Positions 2,147 to 62,306 are shown, counted from the first letter of the stretch. The stretch is DNA of 64,000 nt from Patescibacteria group bacterium (GCA_048499955.1 JASNYX010000003.1:21785-85784); one strand, 5' to 3'. Program-made: numbers and translations. The notes: a model not told the origin generated them from the sequence alone.

Positions 2147-4441
2147 TTATAATTTTTTCGCCTTAATTCGAAGGGAATTCGACACTACTGATACTGACGA
2201 CATCGCCATGGCAAAGCCAGCAAACACAGGATTCAAGAGCCAACCGAATACTGGATACAAAGCTCCGGAGGCAAGAGGAATACCGACGATATTATAGATA
2301 AATGCCCAGAACAGGTTCTGCCTGATTCCTTGCATGGTGATTTTCGAGAGCTTGATTGCTTTAACAAGCTTTGAAATATCTCCACCAAGAAGTGTGATCC
2401 CGGCTGATTCTATTGCTACATCCGTTCCGGTTCCCATGGCGATACCTACATCCGCTTGAGCGAGTGCGGGTGCGTCGTTTACTCCGTCACCAGCCATTGC
2501 TACCATTCGACCCTGCGACTGAAGCTCTTTTACCTTTTCGAGTTTGTCCTGAGGTAGTACATGAGCCACAACATCATCGATGCCAACCAGCGATCCGATA
2601 TATTTGGCGGCCTTTTCATCATCACCGGTAAGCATAACAACTTTAATGCCAAGAGCATGGAGGTTTTTTACTGCTTCAACTGATTCTGTTTTTATTTCAT
2701 CCGCGACCATCACAAAACCAAGCACTCTCTCCGATGTTGCAAGAATGACCGGTGTTTTGCCCTGCGAAGTAAACTCGTTAAGTAAAGCTCTATCAAAAGG
2801 AATATTGAGATCACTAACAAGCTTTGCATTTCCGACAAAGTATTCCGTGCCGTTAATTTTCCCCTTAAGCCCTTTGCCCTGCATGATTTCGAAACCTGAA
2901 GACTCGGAGATAAGAATGTTCTTCTTCTCGGCATAGTTCACGATCGCGTGGGCAATTGGGTGTTCTGATTTCTTTTCAAGTGACGCTAGAATCGATACCA
3001 GTTCATCATCTTTTTGATTTGAAAGGTTTTGAATATCGACGAGCGTCGGCTTGCCACGGGTTAATGTTCCTGTTTTATCAACTACGACCGTATCAACCTT
3101 ATGTAGTTTTTCAAGCGTGGCGGCATCTTTAATAAGGATGCCTTCTTTTGCTCCTTTGCCTACTCCAACTATGATCGCCGTTGGTGTGGCAAGGCCGAGG
3201 GCACACGGACATGCAATGACTAGAATACCCATGAACGAAACGAGACCGAATGATAAAGCCTGGGAGAATCCAAGATATTGTGATCCAACAATGAGCCAGG
3301 CACTGAGCGAAAGAAAGGCGATCACCAAAACAATCGGCACAAAGACTGACGAAATTTTGTCTGCGAGTGCCTGTATCGGAGCCTTGCTTCCCTGAGCCTC
3401 CTCAACCATCTTGATGATTTGGGCGAGTAGTGTTTCTGATCCGACTTTTGTTACTTTAAATGTAAACGATCCACTATTGTTTATTGTTCCGGACACAACA
3501 CTGTCTCCGATCTTTTTCTGTACAGGCATCGGTTCTCCAGTGACCATAGATTCATCAACAAAAGAACTACCGTCAGTTATTACACCGTCCACGGGAATCT
3601 TTGCCCCCGGCTTTACGATGATTAGATCGCCGTGCTTTACGTCATTGATTGATATTTCTGTTTCTTTACCATTGCGGATAACAAGTGCAGTCTTGGCTTG
3701 CAAATTAAGGAGTTTCTCTATGGCGTCACCTGTTTTTATTTTTGATCGAGCTTCCAAGTATTTGCCGAGCGCAATGAAAGTGATAACCACGATCGTCACG
3801 TCGTAGTATTGATAATCGACGTTTATAAAAGGTCGAAGAGTTTCTTCAAGTGCTGTAACTGCAAAGCTGTATAAAAAGGCTGCGGTAGTTCCAATACCAA
3901 TGAGCGTATCCATGTTTGCCTTGCCGTGTCTTATAAATCTATAAAAACCAAGTAGGTATGGTTTACCTACGACAAAAAGTATATAGGTGGCTAAGATGGG
4001 CAGGAGATGATGAAAAAATTCTTTTACCACATAACCCATTTCTGATATGATGCCGTACTCCGCAAGAATATCCCAACCCATGACAAAAGCGGCAAAAATA
4101 GCGATAGGAACAGCCGAAAACACTTTTGCTCGCATGTCCGAAACCTCGGCGAACTTTTCCTTTTTAGATTGATTTAGTCCTAAATGAGAAGCATGTTCTT
4201 CTGCTGACATACCCATTTCCTCGGCAGTGGAAGGAATGTCCAACAAATAGCCAAGTGGCTCGATGTGCTTGGAAAGATCATGAGGATTCGTTTTTGACGG
4301 ATCGAAAGAAACTTTGGCTTTTTCTGTAGCATAGTTAACTTCCGCAGATTGTACTCCCGGAACTTTTTTAAACGTTTTCTCGATGACTGATGAACACGAA
4401 ACACAGTGCATGCCTTTTACTTTGTATATTTGTGTATGCAT
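2147..4441 (-). CDS. copA: Copper-translocating P1B-type ATPase
   Basis: N-terminal HMA motif GMHCVSCS. The CPC motif ([12 protein letters not shown]). DKTGTLT phosphorylation site. [10 protein letters not shown] hinge. 764 aa. Confidence 0.9.
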
Positions 4442-4453
4442 ATTATTTTCTCT

Positions 4454-4723
4454 TCAGCTTATATACTTTGATAATTTCTTCGCTAGCTTTTTTTGTTTGA
4501 CCCGATTGCATCTGATGAAAAACGCAATGACCAAGGTGTGAAGTTTCAGAAGTAGCAGGTTTTCTACGCTAGACAAACCTTGTTTTACTGCCGATGTCTG
4601 CGTGATCACGTCGATGCAATACGTGTCGCTTTCGACCATTTTTTGAAGCCCACGTAGTTGTCCTTCAAGAAGTTTGAGCCGTCGAATGACTTTTGCCTTA
4701 TTTTTATCGTCCATGTATTTCAT
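4454..4723 (-). CDS. csoR: CsoR/RcnR/FrmR-family metal-sensing transcriptional repressor
   Basis: RLKLLEGQLRGLQKMVE...YCIDVITQ matches the CsoR family signature. Start trimmed to the MKYM Met, because the longer ORF would translate through the operator palindrome. Confidence 0.7.
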   Translation of the reverse strand: MKYMDDKNKAKVIRRLKLLEGQLRGLQKMVESDTYCIDVITQTSAVKQGLSSVENLLLLKLHTLVIAFFIRCNRVKQKKLAKKLSKYIS

Positions 4724-4731
4724 GTAAGTAA

Positions 4732-4752
4732 GCATACCCCCTGGGGGTATGC
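4732..4752 (-). promoter_or_regulatory. Putative CsoR operator overlapping the cop operon promoter: GCATACCCCC-T-GGGGGTATGC, with a -35 TTGACA at 4754-4759 and a -10 TATGCT at 4731-4736
   Basis: Perfect 10-bp inverted arms around one central base. GC-rich core with AT flanks, like known CsoR boxes. 17-nt spacer between the -35 and the -10. ATG lies 7 nt after the -10. Confidence 0.6.
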
Positions 4753-4952
4753 GTGTCAATGATTCGAAAACCTGATTGGAAGCTCAGTACACTGTTCAAA
4801 TACCGGGGCTCGGTGAGAGAATCGCGTCTATGATGCAGATATCTGTATGACATGGAAAATATTTGTGGATTCTGAGTCTGGTGGTGGTGAATGTATTAAT
4901 GTTGAGCCATTTGGATAACATTAATTCGGTTCTGAAATTTGATTTTGGTTTC

Positions 4953-5041
4953 TGGCGGAGAGGACAGGGTTCGAACCTGCGCGGAGCTTACGCCCCAACG
5001 GTTTAGCAAACCGCCGCTTTAGACCACTCAGCCACCTCTCC
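4953..5041 (-). tRNA. tRNA-Ser (anticodon GCT), long variable arm, CCA encoded
   Basis: Cloverleaf with 7-bp acceptor stem GGAGAGG/CCTCTCC. Anticodon loop TTGCTAA. Long extra arm. T-loop GTTCGAACC. Confidence 0.85.
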
Positions 5042-5119
5042 ATATGAGTTGAGAATAATTCAATAAAATGAATCATTGCCATTTTAACATGTTTTGCACC
5101 GTTTCATCTTCTGTTAAGA

Positions 5120-5695
5120 TTGAATTATATGGCGAGATTTTTCTTTGTAAGACACGGCGATGCATTCGATGAAAATGGAGTTCAGCTTGATCATTATCCC
5201 CTTAATAATAACGGACGAATACAGGCCCTACAGTTAGCAAAAAGGCTTAGGGACAATAAATTCAACTCTATTTATTGTAGTCGTATTAAACGGTCTATGC
5301 AGACCTGCGAGATTGTTAATGATGTTCATAAGATGGATGTGATCTACACGGCTCAACTCAACGAGGTGGGAGGCCAAATCTGGCCTCAGCCGGGAGTAAA
5401 GGCCGGTGAAGCTGAGCTTGAAAATTATGACATGGCACTCGAGAAGATTTCAAAGTTTTTCGGAAAGCTGGCACTTAACCACAAAGGTGAAGAAGTTGCG
5501 GTTTTTTCGCACGGGAACTGGATACGTGTGTTGTTAAGCTATATTCTGGCAAACGGATCGCCTGAAACTTTTTTCCATTTTGTGATACATAATACTTCGT
5601 TAACAATTGTTGATGTTGATGATATTACCGGGTACCCGAGCATAATTTCCGTTTCGGATGCTGCCCATACCCATTTATATGATTCACATATATAA
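5120..5695 (+). CDS. Histidine phosphatase (phosphoglycerate mutase) superfamily protein
   Basis: N-terminal FFVRHGDA catalytic RHG motif. About 190 aa. Confidence 0.65.
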   Translation: MNYMARFFFVRHGDAFDENGVQLDHYPLNNNGRIQALQLAKRLRDNKFNSIYCSRIKRSMQTCEIVNDVHKMDVIYTAQLNEVGGQIWPQPGVKAGEAELENYDMALEKISKFFGKLALNHKGEEVAVFSHGNWIRVLLSYILANGSPETFFHFVIHNTSLTIVDVDDITGYPSIISVSDAAHTHLYDSHI

Positions 5696-5750
5696 GTTGA
5701 TATTCTTAACGCCATCGTCTAAGTCTTGTGCTAAAATCTAGCTATTAAAT

Positions 5751-6305
5751 ATGAGTCTGCAATCCGTTACCGAAGCCTTTTTAAATAAGCCTAAAGAAAC
5801 TCCGCCTGGTGAGATTCTGCGTCCCTCAGTCACACTTTTTGAGTGGGAAGCCCCTGATCGTGTTTTCAAAAAGCATTCGCGTGAATTTTACCGAAGATTG
5901 GCCGTTATAATAACTTTTTTCGCTCTGATGTTGATTTTTATAAAAGATTTTGTTGTGGTGGTAGTTCTAGGTGTGGTTTTCTTTGTTGTGTATGTTTTTA
6001 ATACTGTTCCACCTAAGCGGGTTATCCATAAAATTACAACAAACGGTGTTATCTTTGGGTCTGAGCACAGCTACGCATGGAGTGAGCTTAAAAGCTTTTT
6101 TATTGAGAAACGTGACGGTTTAGATATGTTGGTAATTGACACTCAAGATCCGCTTCCAGGTAGGATTTATTTTATTCTGGATGCTGCAGTCGACAAGCCT
6201 AAGTTGATTGAGGAAATTAATAAGCATATATCTTTTCAGGAAAATCCCCAAAAGAACATTTACGAAGAATTCGTGAGACGCATCGGTTCTCGGATGCGTA
6301 TATAG
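5751..6305 (+). CDS. Hypothetical membrane protein
   Basis: Long ORF with two predicted TM helices. No recognisable motif. Confidence 0.4.
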   Translation: MSLQSVTEAFLNKPKETPPGEILRPSVTLFEWEAPDRVFKKHSREFYRRLAVIITFFALMLIFIKDFVVVVVLGVVFFVVYVFNTVPPKRVIHKITTNGVIFGSEHSYAWSELKSFFIEKRDGLDMLVIDTQDPLPGRIYFILDAAVDKPKLIEEINKHISFQENPQKNIYEEFVRRIGSRMRI

Positions 6306-6403
6306 TAACCCTAAGATCTTTGTTGATAAAAATTCCACTTATAAAATATCAAACTGAGTTATTAGTTTTAACTGATTTCTAAGCTGTATAGAATGTCTTT
6401 TGT

Positions 6404-6543: not shown

Positions 6544-6620
6544 GTACCCGTAGCTCAGTCGGATAGAGCGCAACTTTGCGGAAGTTGAGGCCACAGGTTC
6601 GAATCCTGTCGGGTGCACCA
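6544..6620 (+). tRNA. tRNA-Arg (anticodon reads GCG), CCA encoded
   Basis: Cloverleaf: acceptor GTACCCG/CGGGTGC, D-loop with A20, anticodon stem CAACT/AGTTG, loop TTGCGGA, T-loop GTTCGAATCC. Confidence 0.7.
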
Positions 6621-46087: not shown

Positions 46088-46912
46088 TTATTCAAAAATA
46101 GTGGAGAGTTCTCTCATTCTTTCGACTCCGATGGTTTTAATATAGTTTTCGATGTCATTCCACTCTTTGTAATTTGATACCTCTTGCCATACGGATCTTC
46201 CTACTGCGTAACCTTTTGATCCATACTCTCTAGATAATTCCAACGCTTGTTGAAATGAGTCGTACTCCATTCCACGACTGAGTACAATCCAAGGTATTTG
46301 TACCTGGCTTTTGATTTTCTCTAAATACCGTCGGGAACTATCGACATTGCTAGTGTCGTTTAACGGAAATTCGATTTTTAATATATCTGCATATTCTTGT
46401 AATGCAATGGTAGATTCTACGATGTCATGAGCTTTATCAAAAGGATCTGTTTCATTTAGCGGATACACAATTGGCTCAATAAGAAAGGGAAGTCCCGCAT
46501 TGTGGGCTTCTTCGCGAGCTTTTTTTAATGTGTCCATTTTTTGAAAATGACCGGAGGCGTTATCGTTATAGTAAACAAGAATCTTAATAGCATTTGCACC
46601 CATTTCTTTTAATTTCTCTGCATCGAATTGTTCATACAGTTTTAATTCACGATTTTGGTCGCCTTCAGTGTAGCCTGAATGTTCACGACTTAGCATCACT
46701 CCTATATTTTTCTCCTTAGCCGCAGCAATTGCCGGTTTTCCGTATTCGGGATCGACTAAAATTGCAGTAATTGTCGAAGCAAACTCCTTTGCTAAGAGCT
46801 CTTTGAACGCGATTAGCTTATCTGCGGGAATAAATTTCTTAAGAGAGTCACGATGGTCGAATGCGGCAATTTTAATAAAACCTTTTTGGTCGGTAATGGA
46901 AGAAAGATTCAT
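46088..46912 (-). CDS. Class I aldolase of the LacD/DhnA family (tagatose- or fructose-bisphosphate aldolase)
   Basis: IAAFDHRDSLKKFI resembles the LacD N-terminus. Adjacent to pgk. Confidence 0.6.
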   Translation of the reverse strand: MNLSSITDQKGFIKIAAFDHRDSLKKFIPADKLIAFKELLAKEFASTITAILVDPEYGKPAIAAAKEKNIGVMLSREHSGYTEGDQNRELKLYEQFDAEKLKEMGANAIKILVYYNDNASGHFQKMDTLKKAREEAHNAGLPFLIEPIVYPLNETDPFDKAHDIVESTIALQEYADILKIEFPLNDTSNVDSSRRYLEKIKSQVQIPWIVLSRGMEYDSFQQALELSREYGSKGYAVGRSVWQEVSNYKEWNDIENYIKTIGVERMRELSTIFE

Positions 46913-46944: not shown

Positions 46945-49900
46945 CTATAGGAGATAGGGAACTGTTGCACTTTGGCCATTAGTTCGGTTATTTGTTAATG
47001 ATGCATCATATGCAGCTCGTTTTGCAGGGTTTCTGAGCGTGGAAAAAGCTTCATTCATGGCTCTTACTCTATCGGATTGTGCCTGTTGTTCGGCATAAGG
47101 TAGTTCAGCAAAGTCTCTCAACGTCGCTTCGAATTGACTATATGAATCAAGTATTTCGGCATCTGTTGCATCCGGGGATACTCCAAGCCTTTCATAATAA
47201 TTGCGAGGGTCGCTGTTTTGAAGTTCTAACCGGTCGCGTGCTTGTTTGGCCATTTGTTCAACTGTTAGAGGTTGACTTGCCGATGGATTTAGTACGTTCG
47301 AATTCGGGGGTGATATTGTGCTTACAGCAGATGGTGGAATAGTCGGACTAGGTGGTACCACTACTTGTGCAGGTGCTACCGGGTTAGACTGATTGGTTGG
47401 GTTAGCTGGTACCGTCGGAGGAGTTACAACCGAGTTAGGCGAGATAGTAGGATTAGGTGGTGTTATCGGTGGCGTTGCAGCTTGGCTAGGTGGAACAGTC
47501 GGGTTCGTCGGTGTTATCTGAGGTATTACAACCTGGCTAGGTGAAATAGTTGGATTAGCCGGTGCTACCGTGGAGTTTGAAGTCGGATTGGGTTGAGAAA
47601 CCGGATTAGACGGTGTTATCGGTGGCGTTGCAACTTGGCTAGGTGGAACAGGCGGATTAGCCGGTGCGACCGTAGAGGTCGGAACCGAATTGGGTTGAGA
47701 AGGCGGAGTAGTTGGTACAACGATGGGGGCTCTTGGTGGCCTCGAGTTTCCTGATTGCAGGTTACCGGCAATAGGTCTTTGAGATTCTTTCACTTCAGCT
47801 GACATAAGTTTTAATGCGACAAGATCAGGAATCGCACCAAGTACAAGTCCGGCCTCGCTTTTTATGAAGCGATGTAATACGTCGAATAGAGTTGGATTAG
47901 CCGGGCTCTTTTCAAATGCTTCAAGTTGGCTCATAAGTAAATCCAGCTCAGACCTATGAGCAATTAGATCTGCTTGATGTACAAGGACTTCCTGCAATTT
48001 GAGTGCTTCAACGAATCGGGAAATTTTCAGTACCTCTACGTTAGGATGACCCCTCGCATTTCTTGCTGCGTTAGTAATGGCAGCGATTTGATCTTCATTT
48101 AGCCCAATATTCTTGGCAGATTGTGTGACCGGGCTTACATTTTCAGGAGAAACTGCCCACTCGATTAATTTTTCCCATCTGGGGTCTGTATTATTTGCTG
48201 CCGCAAGACCTTGTTCAAGGTTTCCTGTGAATAAATCATTTGAAATGAGTGCCACTATTTGTTCATAAGCTCCTATCTCATTACCACCCGCATATTGGCC
48301 CCTCATGATGATTGCTTTCCACATGTCCATTACCGGCCAACCTTTTTCCTCTGCCAACCGAGCTACTGTATCTCTCATATGAGGTTTAAATTGCAGATCC
48401 TCATATAATTTCGCAATGTTTTGAAGGCGATCCCACCTGCTTCCCGCACCCTGGCCTCCTGCATCAAGGTATTCTTTCCAGTTGTCTCCAAATATTTGCT
48501 GTGTTTGATCTATCACATCTTCGCTTTTGTAGGTTAATCCGTCTAAAAATCTTCTGGCGACATGTCTTACTTTCTCTGATCCTTCTCCCAATTGTTCGGT
48601 GATATTAGAAAAGGGATCTTCAATGCTTAAGTCAGGTAATGGGGTATTTGATCCGTCTGATCTTGGCAAATTATCCAAAATTAATTGCCTTATATCGATT
48701 TCATTGCCATTCACGGTAACCTTTAACTCATGAGGTAAGAGATTTTTGAGATTTTCCAGATGAATGTTTAAATCTAAGTCTTCTTCTGATATTCCCCATT
48801 GTTCGAGCAGGTTATCTGAAGACTTAATTTGAGCCACCAGTTTTTCGATTGCATCTGTTGCGGTTTCAATATGATGTGAATTATCTTCAATAGCGGTATT
48901 TACATGTTCCATAACATTTTGAACATGAGGTTTTAGAGCTTCGTATGTACTGTCTATGTAGTTTCTGTCCCCTGTGAAAACATCCATCCATCCTGGGGCA
49001 TTTTCAACAACCGATTGTAAGGTTTGAGCGTAGATTAAAGATTTTGCAGCCCTATCGATCGCTCCGGCTCTTGAATATGCGACTCCGGTTTCCTTTATGA
49101 TTCGAGTGGCTTCGGTTCTAGCTGCTTTGAAAATATAATTGTTAAATTGGTCGTCGATTTCTTGGTCAGTGCTCCCGACCATTTGGTTTGCGATTTGGGT
49201 TCTTATGGCAGCACTTGAAGTTACAAGCAGATTTGCTCGTTTGGCAATTATTTCAAAGTCGGGTTCTCTTTCAAATCCTGAAAGAATTGATTGTACGTAT
49301 AATTTTTTTGCAATTTCAGACATTCCGACGGGATCACTGACGGCAAGTGCTTCGATTTGTGGATATAACGGTGTGTTAAGGTCGATGTTTCTATCTTGTA
49401 GGTATTGGTCAATTTCGGTATCACGCTCTACGATTCTAAATCCACCTTTACCCATGAATCCTGATTCTAGTGTTCTTGTTTTGAGGCCGGATTTCACCAC
49501 ATAGTTCCATACGTTAGAAATAGTTCTTCGGAAAACATTCTTATTCTTGTTTTCTTCGGCTGTTTTGCTTCGTTCTATTTCTTTTCGGTATAAGGTAGCT
49601 GCTCCTTCTCCTGTTTCTGCGTTTATCTTTGAGTATTCTTGTTTGGCTTTCCATTGACCCAGAAGGGCTCCGGCAGCTACACCAACTAAGGGTCCTGAAT
49701 ATTCAAGTGCTTGTGCACTGGCTTCGATTCCGGTGCTAATCGCTACAGGAACGGCAACTTCTACGAGTTTTCTACCAACTTCAATTTTACTAGGCCGGTC
49801 ATGTTCGACTGGGGGTCTAGTGTATGAAGATTCCAACCCTCGTAAAAAGCTATCAAATGAGGCATTTGCAGATCCTCCGGGCAAAAGACCTTCTTGTCTG

Positions 49901-49995
49901 ACTATTTCAGTGCCGATGCTTCTGACCGCATTTCCATTTGCAGGAGTTTTTTCTTCCTTATGTATAAGGTCTGAAAGGTGAGTCCTATATTCCAT
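46945..49995 (-). CDS. Large (1016 aa) mostly alpha-helical protein with a Pro/Thr-rich tandem-repeat region and a C-terminal J-like domain lacking HPD
   Basis: C-terminus NYYERLGVSPDATDAEI...RNPAKRAAYD matches J-domain helices I-II and III-IV, but HPD is replaced by ELP. Confidence 0.5.
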   Translation of the reverse strand: MEYRTHLSDLIHKEEKTPANGNAVRSIGTEIVRQEGLLPGGSANASFDSFLRGLESSYTRPPVEHDRPSKIEVGRKLVEVAVPVAISTGIEASAQALEYSGPLVGVAAGALLGQWKAKQEYSKINAETGEGAATLYRKEIERSKTAEENKNKNVFRRTISNVWNYVVKSGLKTRTLESGFMGKGGFRIVERDTEIDQYLQDRNIDLNTPLYPQIEALAVSDPVGMSEIAKKLYVQSILSGFEREPDFEIIAKRANLLVTSSAAIRTQIANQMVGSTDQEIDDQFNNYIFKAARTEATRIIKETGVAYSRAGAIDRAAKSLIYAQTLQSVVENAPGWMDVFTGDRNYIDSTYEALKPHVQNVMEHVNTAIEDNSHHIETATDAIEKLVAQIKSSDNLLEQWGISEEDLDLNIHLENLKNLLPHELKVTVNGNEIDIRQLILDNLPRSDGSNTPLPDLSIEDPFSNITEQLGEGSEKVRHVARRFLDGLTYKSEDVIDQTQQIFGDNWKEYLDAGGQGAGSRWDRLQNIAKLYEDLQFKPHMRDTVARLAEEKGWPVMDMWKAIIMRGQYAGGNEIGAYEQIVALISNDLFTGNLEQGLAAANNTDPRWEKLIEWAVSPENVSPVTQSAKNIGLNEDQIAAITNAARNARGHPNVEVLKISRFVEALKLQEVLVHQADLIAHRSELDLLMSQLEAFEKSPANPTLFDVLHRFIKSEAGLVLGAIPDLVALKLMSAEVKESQRPIAGNLQSGNSRPPRAPIVVPTTPPSQPNSVPTSTVAPANPPVPPSQVATPPITPSNPVSQPNPTSNSTVAPANPTISPSQVVIPQITPTNPTVPPSQAATPPITPPNPTISPNSVVTPPTVPANPTNQSNPVAPAQVVVPPSPTIPPSAVSTISPPNSNVLNPSASQPLTVEQMAKQARDRLELQNSDPRNYYERLGVSPDATDAEILDSYSQFEATLRDFAELPYAEQQAQSDRVRAMNEAFSTLRNPAKRAAYDASLTNNRTNGQSATVPYLL
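47298..47793 (-). repeat. Imperfect tandem DNA repeats (period about 150 nt) encoding PPxxPTxP / ATPPITP motifs
   Basis: GGTGTTATCGGTGGCGTTGCA(G/A)CTTGGCTAGGTGGAACA recurs at about 47461 and 47611 (plus-strand text). Confidence 0.7.
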
Positions 49996-50470
49996 ACTTA
50001 AGCTTAAATTCTGAGTACCTATTTAATGCATCTTTTAGGTTTTGCAGATTATCATCAATATAGGAGCTTTCAATATCAAAAATAATTTTTTCGCCTTCGT
50101 TTTGAACAGGTTCTTCTCTATGTTGTATTAGTTGGAAAACATCTTTTAGCTGTTGAATAAACGCTTGTTTTTTTACGGTTGCGGCAGATTTATCGACATA
50201 GTCGTTAAAATCAGGAAACAGCTCGAGTATGTACGTTTGGATTTCGATAGGGTCGGGAGATGTATCGAGTTTCTGCTCGATTTCAGTGATAACTTTAGGG
50301 CTAATATTATTTAATGTTAAATAAGCAGTAAAGGCTTTATGTATTGAGGCTTTAGTAAGTGTAGTAAGTGCCAGTGATTTTTGTTCATCTGAGAGCTTCA
50401 CTCCCAATAAATCAAAAATATTTTGTTCCAGAAAAAACTTTTCAACTTCGGTTAAATTTGGGGCAGGCAT
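49985..50470 (-). CDS. Hypothetical protein (161 aa), translationally coupled upstream of the 1016-aa gene
   Basis: ORF overlaps the start of 46945..49995 by 11 nt. Confidence 0.35.
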   Translation of the reverse strand: MPAPNLTEVEKFFLEQNIFDLLGVKLSDEQKSLALTTLTKASIHKAFTAYLTLNNISPKVITEIEQKLDTSPDPIEIQTYILELFPDFNDYVDKSAATVKKQAFIQQLKDVFQLIQHREEPVQNEGEKIIFDIESSYIDDNLQNLKDALNRYSEFKLKYGI

Positions 50471-50512
50471 ATACCATCTATCTTAATACAGGTACGAGTA
50501 TTTCTAAACCTT

Positions 50513-51658
50513 CTAATCTTCAACAAGTTTTGGGTCTAGAATAGCCGGTTCGATACTAACAATTTTTGCTTCCGGTCCTATTTCTTTCATTCTATCTAGC
50601 GTATCTATACGTGAGCTAAGTTTCTCGAAGTTTCGATGAACCTCATCTGATTTATTTTTTGCGTTATTTAGATGTTGTGACATTACTCTAAGGGATTCAC
50701 CGAAGTGGCCGGAATCTTCTTTTATGCTCTTAATTGCCGCGAGTATTTCTCTTGCTCGTGATTCAACTTTTTTGCCTTCGAGTCCGATTAAAATTGCCTT
50801 AAGATATGAATAAAATAGGTTAGGAGAAACAGGAAGAACACGTTTGTTCCAGGCATATTTGCCTAATTCCTCTGAATTGTTTACAACTACTTCATAATAT
50901 ATGGCTTCGCTTGGAATATACATGAGTGCAAAATCTAAGGTTCCTTCGTTGGGGAGAATGTATTTCTTGCCGATATCATCGATATGTTTTTTTACGTTTC
51001 TCACAAACTCTCTTTTTGCTTGATCTCGTTCTGTCTGCAACTCTTTTTGAATCATTGCATTAAAGTTTTCTAGGGGGAATTTCGCGTCTACACAAACGAA
51101 ACCCTCCTCTACTTTTAGTAGGGCATCAACGATGTCTCCCGATCTGAATTTATGTTGTAAAACATAATTTTCTGCGGGAATCATCTGTGAAAGTAGGTCT
51201 TTCAGGACTTCCTCTCCGATATTTCCCCGAAGTTTTGGAGATTTTAAGAAGTCTTGCAGGTCTCTCATGCCTCTTCCTATTTCGCTCATAGAGCCAAGCT
51301 CTTTATGTACGTTCCCGATGACCTCGGCGGCTTTATCGAGTCTGGTATTTAGTGAACGGGAATTTTCATCAACCCTCTTGTTTAAACTGTCTGATGTTTG
51401 GTGTAGTTCTTCTTGAACATGTCGAAGTCGGTTGTCTACGACTCCTTGGACATCTCGCAATCGATCATTCAAAGTTGATTGGACATTATTCAGGTTTCCC
51501 TGCATATTTTCGATCCATTTCAACAGAATTTCTTCCGATTTGTCGTCTGTTTTTTCCTCTTTTAGTTTTTTTATTTGGGAATATAGAAAGTAGCAGATAA
51601 ATCCGCTGGCTCCAACTGTTATTAGGGCTGAAATTGTTATTATTAAGGCAGAATCCAT
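50513..51658 (-). CDS. rmuC: DNA recombination protein RmuC
   Basis: N-terminal TM, long coiled coil, C-terminal LPNEGTLDFALMYIPSEAIYYEVV RmuC core. Confidence 0.7.
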   Translation of the reverse strand: MDSALIITISALITVGASGFICYFLYSQIKKLKEEKTDDKSEEILLKWIENMQGNLNNVQSTLNDRLRDVQGVVDNRLRHVQEELHQTSDSLNKRVDENSRSLNTRLDKAAEVIGNVHKELGSMSEIGRGMRDLQDFLKSPKLRGNIGEEVLKDLLSQMIPAENYVLQHKFRSGDIVDALLKVEEGFVCVDAKFPLENFNAMIQKELQTERDQAKREFVRNVKKHIDDIGKKYILPNEGTLDFALMYIPSEAIYYEVVVNNSEELGKYAWNKRVLPVSPNLFYSYLKAILIGLEGKKVESRAREILAAIKSIKEDSGHFGESLRVMSQHLNNAKNKSDEVHRNFEKLSSRIDTLDRMKEIGPEAKIVSIEPAILDPKLVED

Positions 51659-51710: not shown

Positions 51711-52001
51711 ATGGAATCGAATTTTATCGTTACGATTATTATCTTAATATCGATCCTGCTCTCATTGATAGGCCATTTGTTGCTAAATGTCAAACCTAAC
51801 GGGTGGAATATATATTTGTTGGCAGCAATTATTTCGTTACTCCTTGCCCTGATATCCGCAACGATGCTTTATTTGTTTAAAAGACAGGGAATAGGCCAGA
51901 CAAAAAAAGAATTATTTAGAGCTTGTTTTAAGAAGGGATTAATTTTTGGGGCAATTGCCTTCGTGTCTATAATTTTGCAGATCCAATACGATTACATTTA
52001 A
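51711..52001 (+). CDS. Small membrane protein (96 aa)
   Basis: Three hydrophobic helices. Low confidence. Confidence 0.3.
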   Translation: MESNFIVTIIILISILLSLIGHLLLNVKPNGWNIYLLAAIISLLLALISATMLYLFKRQGIGQTKKELFRACFKKGLIFGAIAFVSIILQIQYDYI

Positions 52002-52071: not shown

Positions 52072-53457
52072 ATGTCTGATAACAAATATTATATTACTAC
52101 CCCCATATACTATGCGAATGATGTTCCCCATATAGGACACACAGGGACAACTGTTTTTGCAGATATTATTGCAAGATATCAAAGAATTAGTGGGAAAGAA
52201 GTATTCTTTTTAACAGGAAACGATGAGCATGGTGAAAAAGTCGCATTAGCGGCTCAGAAGGTCGGAGAATCTCCTCAGCAATTTGTTGATGAATTAGCTC
52301 TTGAGTGGCAGAAATACTGGGAAAAACTGAACATAAGTAATGATCATTTTTTCAGAACTACAGCCGAAGGGCATAAAAAAGTTGTTCATGATTTATTAAC
52401 CAAACTTTGGGAAAAAGGTGACATTTATAAGGATGTATACAAAGGTATCTACTGTGTTGGATGTGAAGAATTTAAAGCAGAGAAAGACTTGGTCGACGGA
52501 AAATGCCCTGAACATAGACCCGACCAAGTTTACTACCGGGAAGAAGAGAACTACTTTTTCAGAATCACCAAGTACCTACCAGAAGTGAAGAAGTTAATCG
52601 AATCCGGAGAATTTATTGTCGAACCCGATAACAAAAGAAACGAAATGTTGTCGCGTTTGAGTGGTGATATTAACGATCTGTCGATTTCCAGGCCCAACTT
52701 GAAGTGGGGGATAACGATTCCTTGGGACGAGAATCATGTTACATACGTTTGGGTTGAAGCCTTAATGAACTATTACTCTGCAACTAAAATTTGTAATAAA
52801 GAGGATTTTTGGCCTGCAAATGTACACTTCGTCGGCAAAGGCATTAACTGGTTCCATTCAGTAATTTGGCCATCGATGTTACTTGCATTGGAGTTGCCTC
52901 TTCCTAAAAAAGTATTCGTTCACGGATACTACAATGTTGACGGTAAAAAGATGGGTAAATCTTTAGGTAACGTAATTTCTCCTCAAGATCTTCTTGAAAA
53001 ATATGGAGTTGATGGGACGAGGTATCTTCTTTGTGCAAGTATGCCTTATGAAAACGATAGCGATGTGAGCTTCACTTGGTTTGATCAAAAATATAATGCT
53101 GATTTAGCTAATGGGTTGGGAAACCTTGTTTCCCGAGTGGCCAAGCTGGCTGAAGGGCAGACATTTGAGGTTGTGACAAGTGTTGATTTAAGTATTTACG
53201 AGAAATTCAAGTTACACGAAGTTGTATCGTATTCAAGTAGGTTGGTTGCTGAAGCAAACGAATATCTAAACAAAGAAGAACCATGGAAGAAGTCCGGTGA
53301 TCAAAAAAACACGGTGCTTAAAGAAGTTATTGGGAAAATTGTCGATATTGCCAGACTATTGGAACCTATTACTCCCGAGGCCTCCGGAACGATTATCAGA
53401 ACCTTCTCAGGGAAACTATCTATTTCGCCCGTATCGGCACTGTATTTGCGGATCTGA
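52072..53457 (+). CDS. metG: Methionyl-tRNA synthetase (compact form)
   Basis: HIGH (PHIGHTGT). KMSKS (KMGKSLGN). CxxC...CPEH zinc knuckle in CP domain. Confidence 0.9.
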   Translation: MSDNKYYITTPIYYANDVPHIGHTGTTVFADIIARYQRISGKEVFFLTGNDEHGEKVALAAQKVGESPQQFVDELALEWQKYWEKLNISNDHFFRTTAEGHKKVVHDLLTKLWEKGDIYKDVYKGIYCVGCEEFKAEKDLVDGKCPEHRPDQVYYREEENYFFRITKYLPEVKKLIESGEFIVEPDNKRNEMLSRLSGDINDLSISRPNLKWGITIPWDENHVTYVWVEALMNYYSATKICNKEDFWPANVHFVGKGINWFHSVIWPSMLLALELPLPKKVFVHGYYNVDGKKMGKSLGNVISPQDLLEKYGVDGTRYLLCASMPYENDSDVSFTWFDQKYNADLANGLGNLVSRVAKLAEGQTFEVVTSVDLSIYEKFKLHEVVSYSSRLVAEANEYLNKEEPWKKSGDQKNTVLKEVIGKIVDIARLLEPITPEASGTIIRTFSGKLSISPVSALYLRI

Positions 53458-53988
53458 GAATTCTCTCGTTTTGTAGTGCTCTATTACCTCTTTAGCAATT
53501 GCATCAACGTCGAGAAGGGGAATACTCCAAGCTCCCTGAGTCATTGGTAATATTAGTCTTTCGTTAGCGATTGTAACCTGATAGTTGATTTGCGTAGCAC
53601 ATCTGATCAATCCGGTCGGATTTCGACTGCGATGACTTAGACCTATTAAAACTTCGGAACAACCGCCATTATTAACACTTTGGGGGTCTTCAAGAATATC
53701 GAAAATGTAACCCGGCCTATGTGTGCCATTTACCAGACAAACCATCTTTAAGGATTCGGCACAAGCTTCGCCGAATTTTGTGTCAACTTCGGGATTTACC
53801 TTGTAAATGAAGGTTATTAATGGTGCTTCACTAGGAAGACAAACGCCATTCGCTTCCACGCAATAGAAACCCGGTGCTATTACAGGAACTAACCCGTATT
53901 GGTGAACAGGTGCAGTTTCTGTAGTCTGTAAACTATTGTTTAGAGTTGGCTCGACGAGTGCGAGACCTTCTATGGTGTTTGTATTCAT
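53416..53988 (-). CDS. dCTP deaminase/dUTPase-superfamily protein
   Basis: GLSHRSRN..GL and RPGYIFDIL resemble Dcd GRSS.ARLG and DPGF.G motifs. Converges on metG with a 42-nt overlap. Confidence 0.45.
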   Translation of the reverse strand: MNTNTIEGLALVEPTLNNSLQTTETAPVHQYGLVPVIAPGFYCVEANGVCLPSEAPLITFIYKVNPEVDTKFGEACAESLKMVCLVNGTHRPGYIFDILEDPQSVNNGGCSEVLIGLSHRSRNPTGLIRCATQINYQVTIANERLILPMTQGAWSIPLLDVDAIAKEVIEHYKTREFSDPQIQCRYGRNR

Positions 53989-61226: not shown

Positions 61227-62306
61227 ATGTTTCAGCCGGAGTTTCGCATTAACAATAAAATCCTAAAATACATCAGTGAAGTTGAAGCTTGCAAAGAAGT
61301 GATAACTAACTCACCATTATTGCCATTATATGAGAGACAGTTCAAAACCGATGCAGTAGCAAGGAAAGTCCATTTTTCTACTGCCATTGAAGGTAATTAT
61401 CTTAACATTAATGAGGTGCGAAAAATTGTTGACGGAAATATAGGTGATTTCAAACAAAACGGTGAGCAAGTAATTTCGCGAAAAAGAGATTTGTATGAAG
61501 TAATAAATTACCGGGATTTAGTTAAGTATATTGAAAGCCTGACAAAAAAGCACAAAAAAGAACACTCCTATTACAATTTCGATTTAACAGAACCAATTAT
61601 CAAGGAAATGCATAGAATGTTGCTCAAAAACATATATGAACCAGCAGGCCAATACAGAGTTGGTACTGCGATCTCTGTTAACTATTTAACAGGCGAAAAA
61701 CTATATCCATACGAAGATGTGGGAAATGTGGAAACACGCCTAAGAGAGCTCATTTATTGGTACAACAACTCTCGTGTAGAAGACGTGAACCCGATTATTA
61801 AGGCGGGAATACTACATCTCGAGTTTGTAAGAATACACCCATTTGAAGAGGGTAATGGTAGGTTAGCGAGGGCTTTGGCCACGTTATCATTATCTGTTGA
61901 TAATTATGATGTTGAACACTTTTTTTGTCTTGATGAATACTATGACTCAAATGCAGAAGAATATTATCACCACCTTGGGGTAGGGTTCCTAAATTTAACT
62001 ACTTGGCTGGAATATTTTTGCCTAGGGATGGCAATAGAATTTAAGCGTGTCAAAGAACGTGTATTAAAGATTTCAAAAGATGCCACGATTAAAACAAAGG
62101 TTGGGCAACTATATATATCAGAAAGACAGGAAAAAATAATAGAATGGCTCAATCATTTCGGATTTATCAGGAATCAGGATTTCAATGCCATTTTCCCGGA
62201 TATATCTGACGATACAGTGCTTCGGGAGCTAAAAATTTTGGTCGATAATGGTGTGCTTACAAAAAAGGGTCGTACAAAATCTGCCAGATATGAATTTGCG
62301 GACTAA
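61227..62306 (+). CDS. Fic/Doc-family protein (class II, N-terminal inhibitory helix) with C-terminal winged helix
   Basis: HPFEEGNGRLARAL FIC motif. N-terminal STAIEGN matches the (S/T)xxxE(G/N) inhibitory motif. Confidence 0.8.
   Translation: MFQPEFRINNKILKYISEVEACKEVITNSPLLPLYERQFKTDAVARKVHFSTAIEGNYLNINEVRKIVDGNIGDFKQNGEQVISRKRDLYEVINYRDLVKYIESLTKKHKKEHSYYNFDLTEPIIKEMHRMLLKNIYEPAGQYRVGTAISVNYLTGEKLYPYEDVGNVETRLRELIYWYNNSRVEDVNPIIKAGILHLEFVRIHPFEEGNGRLARALATLSLSVDNYDVEHFFCLDEYYDSNAEEYYHHLGVGFLNLTTWLEYFCLGMAIEFKRVKERVLKISKDATIKTKVGQLYISERQEKIIEWLNHFGFIRNQDFNAIFPDISDDTVLRELKILVDNGVLTKKGRTKSARYEFAD

Follow-up and report, generated by a model that had tools for sequence, protein, structure and literature searches.

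Within a 64,000-nucleotide (nt) stretch of DNA from a Patescibacteria group bacterium (GCA_048499955.1, JASNYX010000003.1:21785-85784; referred to as the window herein), we found a conserved pair of genes that encode a small acidic protein of 161 residues, orf161, and a helical protein of 1016 residues, the large protein, which ends in a degenerate J-like domain behind a Pro/Thr-rich repeat. With moderate confidence, we read the pair as a lineage-restricted module in which a scaffold, together with a small partner protein, presents a tethered J-like interaction domain of type IV that would not stimulate Hsp70. According to this reading, the J-like domain would descend from a DnaJ-type J domain in which the residues that determine the fold were kept and the elements that activate Hsp70 were lost.

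Open reading frame (ORF) calls placed rmuC at 50513-51658, orf161 at 49985-50470 and the gene for the large protein at 46945-49995, all on the minus strand, as are all parts of the module given below. These coordinates are exactly those of an earlier note on this DNA, which had been made from the sequence alone and had described the three genes as one operon. The overlap of 11 nt between orf161 and the large gene (49985-49995) is legible in the sequence (...AAGTATGGAATATAG), where the large gene opens with an ATG at 49995 and the TAG stop codon of orf161 (49987-49985) falls within its opening codons. A contig from a sister strain (L008) carries the identical 11-nt overlap between the two genes, and the alignment of the large protein with its closest homologue begins at residue 4; taken together, these two observations make the start codon of the large gene credible. 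Comparison with the sister strain also gave identities of 95% for RmuC and 93% for the large protein, and over 314 codons of the large gene we counted 69 synonymous and 22 non-synonymous codon differences. Since synonymous differences are far in excess, the large gene is, judged by its codons, a real gene under purifying selection. The word giant, which the earlier note had used for it, overstates a protein of 1016 residues.

The pairing of the two genes extends beyond the window. An exhaustive phmmer search with residues 1-772 of the large protein against 1.84 billion cluster representatives yielded only 10 proteins at E <= 0.001, all of them from metagenomes or metagenome-assembled genomes. 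Scans of genome, metagenome and viral contigs found no further relatives, and word-indexed searches with an alignment of the N-terminal domain and with the J-like fragment returned no matches. In all loci recovered for full-length family members, 8 of them besides the window (L001-3, L004, L005, which is cut by the contig end, L006/7, L009, L010, L011 and L013/14), a gene for a protein of 154-162 residues lies directly upstream of the large gene, either abutting or overlapping it. Alignments and BLASTP (E 2e-15 for the closest) show these small upstream proteins to be homologues of orf161, and they are acidic, with isoelectric points (pI) of 4.7-5.5; orf161 itself has a pI of 4.7, contains no hydrophobic segment and carries the conserved N-terminal motif NxFDLLGLxxLSxEE. 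Neither orf161 nor its homologues had a match in Pfam, NCBIfam, PADLOC, PHROG or PDB. The remaining neighbors vary by locus, being SWIB and ClpB, Rho and a LysM-peptidase, glycosyltransferases, or integrases, and it is only in the window and the sister strain that rmuC lies next to the module. The link of the large gene with the 161-residue gene, as proposed in the earlier note, is therefore strongly supported by the pairs kept in the 8 other loci, and rmuC drops out of the unit: by gene order, what is conserved as a unit is orf161 together with the large protein.

All family members share an architecture consisting of an N-domain, a variable helical region, a mid-domain, a Gly/Ala-rich helix, a low-complexity linker and a C-terminal helical domain of ~100 residues, and all of the large proteins are acidic (pI 4.6-5.8) and without a signal peptide. 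Across the family, the C-terminal domains cannot be aligned with one another, and the Pfam J-domain model PF00226 is significant for the window protein only. In the latter, PF00226 matched residues 932-997 (47005-47202), which comprise helices I-IV of an acidic J-like domain, along the full model (positions 1-63 of 63). The cutoff of the model is 27.8 bits; the whole protein scored 27.9 bits, and the C-terminal 106 residues alone scored 34.5 bits (E 2.2e-8). Furthermore, phmmer against PDB sequences yielded 33 matches, nearly all of them J-domain or DnaJ-like chains, with a best E of 7e-6. The DnaJ models of NCBIfam matched at their J part only, the bacterial DnaJ models being the best NCBIfam matches. 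TIGR02349, the model for DnaJ proper, reached 26.8 bits against a cutoff of 377 and aligned at model positions 1-72 of 354, and the TopJ models TIGR03835 and NF037946 reached 17.2 and 9.7 bits where their cutoffs are 512 and 300, again at the J part only, so the large protein is a member of none of these families. When compared with E. coli DnaJ, helix I (YYERLGVS) is identical at 7 of 8 positions and helix IV (KRAAYD) at all 6.

The His-Pro-Asp (HPD) tripeptide of J domains is critical if the ATPase of Hsp70 is to be stimulated, and R22, K26 and R27 on DnaJ are crucial for binding the nucleotide-binding domain of DnaK (PMC10349383). We found no HPD or H-x-D tripeptide anywhere in the 1016 residues of the large protein. 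The earlier note had reported that HPD is replaced by ELP; the loss stands, but the replacement depends on the alignment. HPD is expected in the loop between helices II and III (DFAELPYAEQ, residues 961-970; 47086-47115), which we placed from alignments and from DSSP. Here, the counterpart of HPD is ELP by the DSSP loop in the AlphaFold2 (AF2) model (residues 964-966), FAE in the HMMER alignment, and YAE when aligned with the family member P0003. With helix II aligned without gaps, R22, K26 and R27 correspond to L949, S953 and Q954. The net charge of helix II is -4, compared with +3 in E. coli DnaJ, and the pI of the domain is 4.6, compared with 8.1.

In type IV J-domain proteins (JDPs), the HPD is corrupted and helix II is less positive, so that it is debatable whether they associate with Hsp70 (PMC10349383). 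The C-terminal domain of the large protein shows the similarity to the J fold, the corrupted HPD and the reduced helix II charge of type IV JDPs and J-like proteins, and it shows neither the HPD loop nor the basic helix II face of canonical class A, B and C JDPs. By these residues, it is a degenerate type-IV J-like domain whose structural core was kept and in which both Hsp70-activating elements were lost. The conclusion of the earlier note that the domain would not stimulate DnaK in the canonical way thus comes out stronger than it went in, since Leu, Ser and Gln on helix II, a helix charge of -4 and an acidic domain now point the same way as the missing tripeptide. To our knowledge, most of the J-like domains known to lack HPD come from eukaryotes and parasites, and descriptions of bacterial ones are few. 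Within the family, P0003 gave a J match below threshold (17 bits) but contains the sequence IAHPD with a basic helix before it, and therefore appears to retain HPD. The C-terminal domain of P0002, the closest homologue of the window protein, had no J match. We considered whether all of the family C-termini are degenerate J domains and rejected this, as they do not align with one another and PF00226 matches the window protein and P0003 only.

The J-like domain is separated from the rest of the protein by a low-complexity linker rich in Pro, Ser, Val, Thr and Asn (residues 745-910; 47266-47763), which is 28% Pro, has no charged residues between residues 761 and 905, and is predicted to be unstructured by AF2. 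Its periodic part (residues 761-896; 47308-47715) consists of about 7-8 diverged units of 51 nt, or 17 residues, as seen with Tandem Repeats Finder, from the spacing of copies and by autocorrelation. Tandem Repeats Finder reported a period of 51 (4.3 copies, 66% matches) and a period of 102 (1.9 copies, 80%), and a direct-repeat search found a start-to-start spacing of 51 nt. The DNA autocorrelation of the periodic part was 0.56, 0.62 and 0.55 at lags of 51, 102 and 153, values that none of 2000 codon shuffles reached (top autocorrelation over all in-frame lags, 0.475). The unit has the consensus PxNPxxxPSQVxxPPIT and alternates with the variant PxxPxSQPNxxxxSTVA. While the tandem repeat described in the earlier note is thus real, its unit is 51 nt and not the ~150 nt first given. 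The larger figure corresponds to three units, because units 1 and 4, which lie 153 nt apart, are 90% identical. Compared pairwise, the units are on average 53% identical, and no exact direct repeat is longer than 21 nt. Because the units are this diverged and the exact repeats this short, assembly collapse is unlikely and replication slippage would be infrequent. The description of the tract as a hotspot for length variation is accordingly weak on the timescale of slippage, and the suspicion that the repeats might be an assembly artifact is not borne out by units that are diverged and in frame.

Over the longer timescale of the family, no part of the large protein varies as much as the linker, be it in length or in composition. 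A low-complexity linker is present in every homologue and is different in each, with Pro/Thr in the window protein and Gly/Pro, Asn/Thr/Gln, Pro/Glu/Arg or Gly/Ser/Asp in the homologues. The linker of P0009 (L011 585-2723) contains three perfect tandem copies of GENVAAGQSPS, which implies that linker repeats arise independently within the family.

N-terminal to the linker, the large protein is built from two conserved domains and the helices around them. The N-domain (residues ~64-323; 49027-49806) was delimited by alignments, AF2 giving a predicted local distance difference test (pLDDT) of about 80 for residues 190-310 only. It contains the invariant residues P83, G101, P102, G109, G113, G129, R191, Q235, F241 and K318 and the motif QSxLSGFSE. 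Inside this domain lies a first Gly/Ala-rich, weakly hydrophobic helix-GP-helix segment (residues 76-121; 49633-49770), with Kyte-Doolittle values of 1.0-1.2 in the window protein and 1.3-1.7 in the homologues and with charged residues within it; it is possibly a hairpin that interacts with a membrane or packs tightly. A central region of long helices follows (residues ~331-480; 48556-49005; AF2 and alignment), whose length varies across the family; AF2 drew helices at residues 277-331 and 345-400 with low confidence. The conserved mid-domain (residues 482-647; 48055-48552) is modeled confidently as a compact bundle of 10 helices in which Y509, R520 and R523 are invariant, and we found no fold relative for it. 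Directly before the linker is a second Gly/Ala-rich hydrophobic helix (residues ~705-737; 47785-47883), with a Kyte-Doolittle value of 1.6 in the window protein and of 1.2-1.9 in 7 of 8 homologues, the eighth being P0007 at 1.0. The two Gly/Ala-rich segments may insert into a membrane. DSSP on the AF2 model agrees with the earlier description of the protein as largely helical, although the model is of low confidence overall. Foldseek matches of the full-length model were noise, and profile searches against PDB sequences with the N-domain, the mid-domain and the small protein gave nothing significant; the best match to the N-domain, the influenza HA2 fusion peptide and coiled coil, had a non-significant E of 0.16.

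From these features we propose the following arrangement. The orf161 and large genes would act as a translationally coupled two-gene module. The large protein would be an acidic, all-helical scaffold in which the conserved N-domain and mid-domain are held apart by long helices of variable length; it is probably bound by its small acidic partner and possibly associated with a membrane. A disordered, fast-evolving tether, here the 17-residue Pro/Thr repeat of ~135 residues inside an uncharged stretch of 165, would carry a small and exchangeable C-terminal helical domain. In the window protein, the J-like domain on this flexible spacer would serve as a protein-interaction module, much as in Pam16/Tim16 and other J-like proteins without HPD, and not as an activator of the DnaK ATPase, in whichever cellular process the module may take part.

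Several points weigh against this proposal. The interaction between orf161 and the large protein is deduced solely from gene order and overlap, and no known homologue points to a function. The full-length AF2 model is of low confidence, with a pLDDT of 47.8. The two Gly/Ala-rich segments are only weakly hydrophobic (Kyte-Doolittle 1.0-1.9), carry charges and have no positive-inside bias, which makes membrane association uncertain. Uncharged Pro/Thr linkers are seen more typically outside the cell or across the wall than as tethers in the cytoplasm. Lastly, J-like proteins without HPD can still bind Hsp70 or J-proteins, and Hsp70 may yet be involved.

The character of the linker leads to an alternative that we consider unlikely, in which the large protein is exposed on the surface or secreted, orf161 is a small acidic export chaperone, the Pro/Thr repeat spans the wall and the C-terminal domain is a variable head. 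The Gly/Ala-rich segments would then insert into the membrane of the cell itself or of a partner cell, and HPD would have been lost either because there is no Hsp70 or ATP outside or because a host chaperone is targeted. A small, acidic, helical gene product (pI 4.7-5.5) encoded directly upstream and translationally coupled would suit such a system, as would the conservation of both hydrophobic segments and a linker with 28% Pro and no charged residues. A conserved N-terminal part with C-termini that cannot be aligned also resembles the layout of polymorphic effectors, and the best PDB profile match of the N-domain was, without significance (E 0.16), a fusion peptide. However, there is neither a signal peptide nor a secretion-system gene in the flanks of any locus, no conserved immunity-like gene follows the module, and no chaperone, effector or toxin family was matched in Pfam, PADLOC or PHROG. 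The hydrophobic segments, besides being weak, include charged residues, and the HPD and basic helix II that P0003 appears to have kept point to an Hsp70 partner in the cytoplasm for at least one of the family.

We regard it as quite improbable that the large protein is a scaffold for the cytoskeleton, cell division or polarity, similar to ZipN/ARC6 or to TopJ of the Mycoplasma terminal organelle. ZipN/ARC6, from cyanobacteria and plastids, is a J-like protein without HPD that organizes FtsZ. Long helices with possible coiled coils, a Pro-rich spacer and a J-like domain fit such a role, and the NCBIfam TopJ models do match weakly at the J part. Their 17 and 10 bits, however, stand against cutoffs of 512 and 300, and there is no sequence similarity outside the J domain, which is C-terminal in the window protein and N-terminal in TopJ and ARC6. 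Division genes are not consistently adjacent to the module, and this explanation is a sub-case of a scaffold, not a distinct mechanism.

To a bolder combination of these ideas we give an equally small chance. Here, the pair would be an undescribed two-component system of uncultured bacteria in which a small dedicated chaperone delivers a membrane-inserting helical scaffold to the envelope, the repeat forms a stalk that spans the wall, and exchangeable heads engage another cell or a chaperone system. The head in the window would be a decoy J domain, and the mid-domain a new fold with an activity of its own.

Slimmer still is the prospect that the protein is a tethered Hsp70 co-chaperone of the DjlA type, whose J-like domain recruits and activates DnaK through a non-canonical interface. 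In its favor are the well-conserved core of the J fold (7 of 8 residues of helix I and all 6 of helix IV as in E. coli DnaJ), the HPD kept in P0003 and a ClpB gene two genes from the module in L001-L003. Yet HPD and the basic helix II are both gone from an acidic domain, and the family cannot have Hsp70 activation as its core function when a J domain is undetectable in most of its members. As for an artifact, meaning a repeat made by assembly collapse or expansion or a J match that arose by chance in a helical tail, the whole-protein Pfam score just 0.1 bit over the cutoff would allow it, as would the fact that no other assembly covering the repeat was found, but it is scarcely credible given 34.5 bits (E 2.2e-8) for the fragment over the entire model, 33 PDB matches that are nearly all J-domain or DnaJ-like, repeat units that are diverged (53%, longest exact repeat 21 nt), in frame and resolvable by short reads, an intact ORF, and an architecture common to the homologues.

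Additional candidates were tried for the two proteins and set aside. The motif NIFDLLGV..LSDEQ on the small protein and a weak HscB match (E 0.007) raised the idea of a second J-like protein, but hhalign gave a probability of 0.15% and there were no J matches in PDB. A weak precomputed match of the L004 small protein to DUF5663 was not reproduced by hmmscan, and we found no literature on this family. A phage tape-measure protein with its chaperone was rejected as there was no PHROG match and the surrounding genes are housekeeping; PADLOC had no match for orf161 or the large protein, and PHROG gave only noise at E > 0.05. Nothing in the window favors the taxonomy or the apparatus of a Chlamydia-like Inc protein or type III effector.

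The homologous loci provided several further observations. Just downstream of the module in L005 (3252-4760, minus strand) and L010 (8957-10714, minus strand) is a gene for a tyrosine recombinase of 502 and 585 residues, respectively (Phage_integrase), with a 110-residue gene product encoded between the module and the recombinase in L010. These recombinases hint that the module sometimes sits on or beside a mobile element. Upstream of the module in L001, at a distance of two genes and on the opposite strand, is the gene for ClpB, an Hsp70-dependent disaggregase (3850-6369, minus strand); in L002 a cut gene is found at this position. Residues ~719-788 of P0002 (L001 8001-10460) match residues 112-178 of the contractile-injection sheath protein Afp3 (6rao_D, E 4.6e-4), the match being centered on an NGGGP..LY motif. 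P0008 (467 residues; L012 533-1936) consists of the mid-domain and C-terminal part only, with a cut ORF of 139 residues upstream, and its gene may be split or frameshifted.

On either side of the module in the window are two annotated genes. The gene rmuC, separated from orf161 by 42 nt, encodes 381 residues with an N-terminal transmembrane helix, a coiled coil and an RmuC nuclease-like domain. The RmuC match is solid (PF02646, 181 bits against a cutoff of 26, E 3.3e-53, model positions 2-286 of 291), and the N-terminus is hydrophobic, with a Kyte-Doolittle value of 2.2. A class I aldolase gene of the DeoC/LacD family (46088-46912, minus strand; PF01791, E 3.3e-30) starts 32 nt past the stop codon of the large gene on the same strand. 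No terminator-like sites were found between rmuC, orf161, the large gene and the aldolase gene, which makes co-transcription plausible. Without such a site before the aldolase gene, the transcription unit probably runs past the end first assigned to it, and the aldolase is probably encoded on the same transcript as the large gene.

Other features of the window lie further from the module. Divergent from rmuC and 52 nt apart from it is a 96-residue ORF for a hydrophobic protein (51711-52001, plus strand) with no Pfam match above threshold. An ORF of 190 residues (53416-53988, minus strand), also without a Pfam match, has a 42-nt antisense overlap with the 3' end of the gene for methionyl-tRNA synthetase (52072-53457, plus strand). 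A 761-residue ORF (26844-29129, minus strand) had no Pfam match at E <= 1e-5 and was ruled out as a paralogue of the large protein by an hhalign probability of 0.04%. A Fic/DOC-domain protein (61227-62306, plus strand; PF02661, E 7e-19) is encoded downstream of FtsK and an unannotated ORF of 148 residues. ARAGORN found a tRNA-Arg with the anticodon GCG (6544-6620, plus strand). Bacterial CGN codons are usually read by a tRNA with the anticodon ACG (inosine), and the GCG anticodon seen here may be informative about the lineage. No rRNA genes were found in the 64 kb.

J-like proteins without HPD are a known kind; what is new here is an unannotated scaffold family with a conserved partner and with a mid-domain that has no fold relative. 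The window protein offers a clear bacterial case in which the core of the J fold is kept and both Hsp70-activating elements are gone, and, together with its relative P0003, which appears to keep HPD, it gives a natural pair in which the repurposing of J domains can be studied. Of more use is the module of two conserved genes itself, which is rare, amounting to 10 clusters among 1.84 billion, and has no annotation; with its confidently modeled mid-domain, it is a small target for structural and interaction work. As the module cannot be given a function, its significance is modest for now.

Among known systems, the domain is closest in kind to the type IV JDPs, with E. coli DjlB, human DNAJB13 and P. 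falciparum RESA as examples (PMC10349383), and to Pam16/Tim16/Magmas, which are J-like proteins with a corrupted HPD (PMC8605242). Like these, it has the four-helix J fold without HPD and with a helix II that is not positively charged. Unlike these, it sits at the extreme C-terminus of an unrelated scaffold of ~900 residues, behind a Pro/Thr repeat, and outside the J part there is no sequence relation between type IV JDPs and the window protein. Pam16 works with a partner J-protein, Pam18, for which no counterpart is known in the case of the window protein. Class A DnaJ (TIGR02349, PF00226) is almost identical in helix I (YYERLGVS) and helix IV (KRAAYD) when the E. coli protein is compared, whereas the window protein has no Gly/Phe-rich region, zinc finger, C-terminal substrate-binding domain, HPD or basic helix II. 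Mycoplasma TopJ is likewise large and has a proline-rich region as well as a J domain, but its J domain is N-terminal and has HPD, and the window protein is not a member of that family. In overall layout, with a hydrophobic segment and a long low-complexity spacer before a small C-terminal domain, the large protein resembles DjlA and ZipA, in which a membrane anchor and a flexible spacer rich in Gly or Pro/Gln precede the C-terminal interaction domain, in DjlA a J domain. DjlA, however, has only ~270 residues, its HPD is intact and its N-terminal transmembrane helix is a true one, a J domain is absent from ZipA, and the window protein differs from both in its weak hydrophobic segments and large novel helical body; no sequence similarity to either was detected. 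This likeness would therefore concern a possible mode of working, a small domain held out on a long flexible spacer, and not membership of a family.

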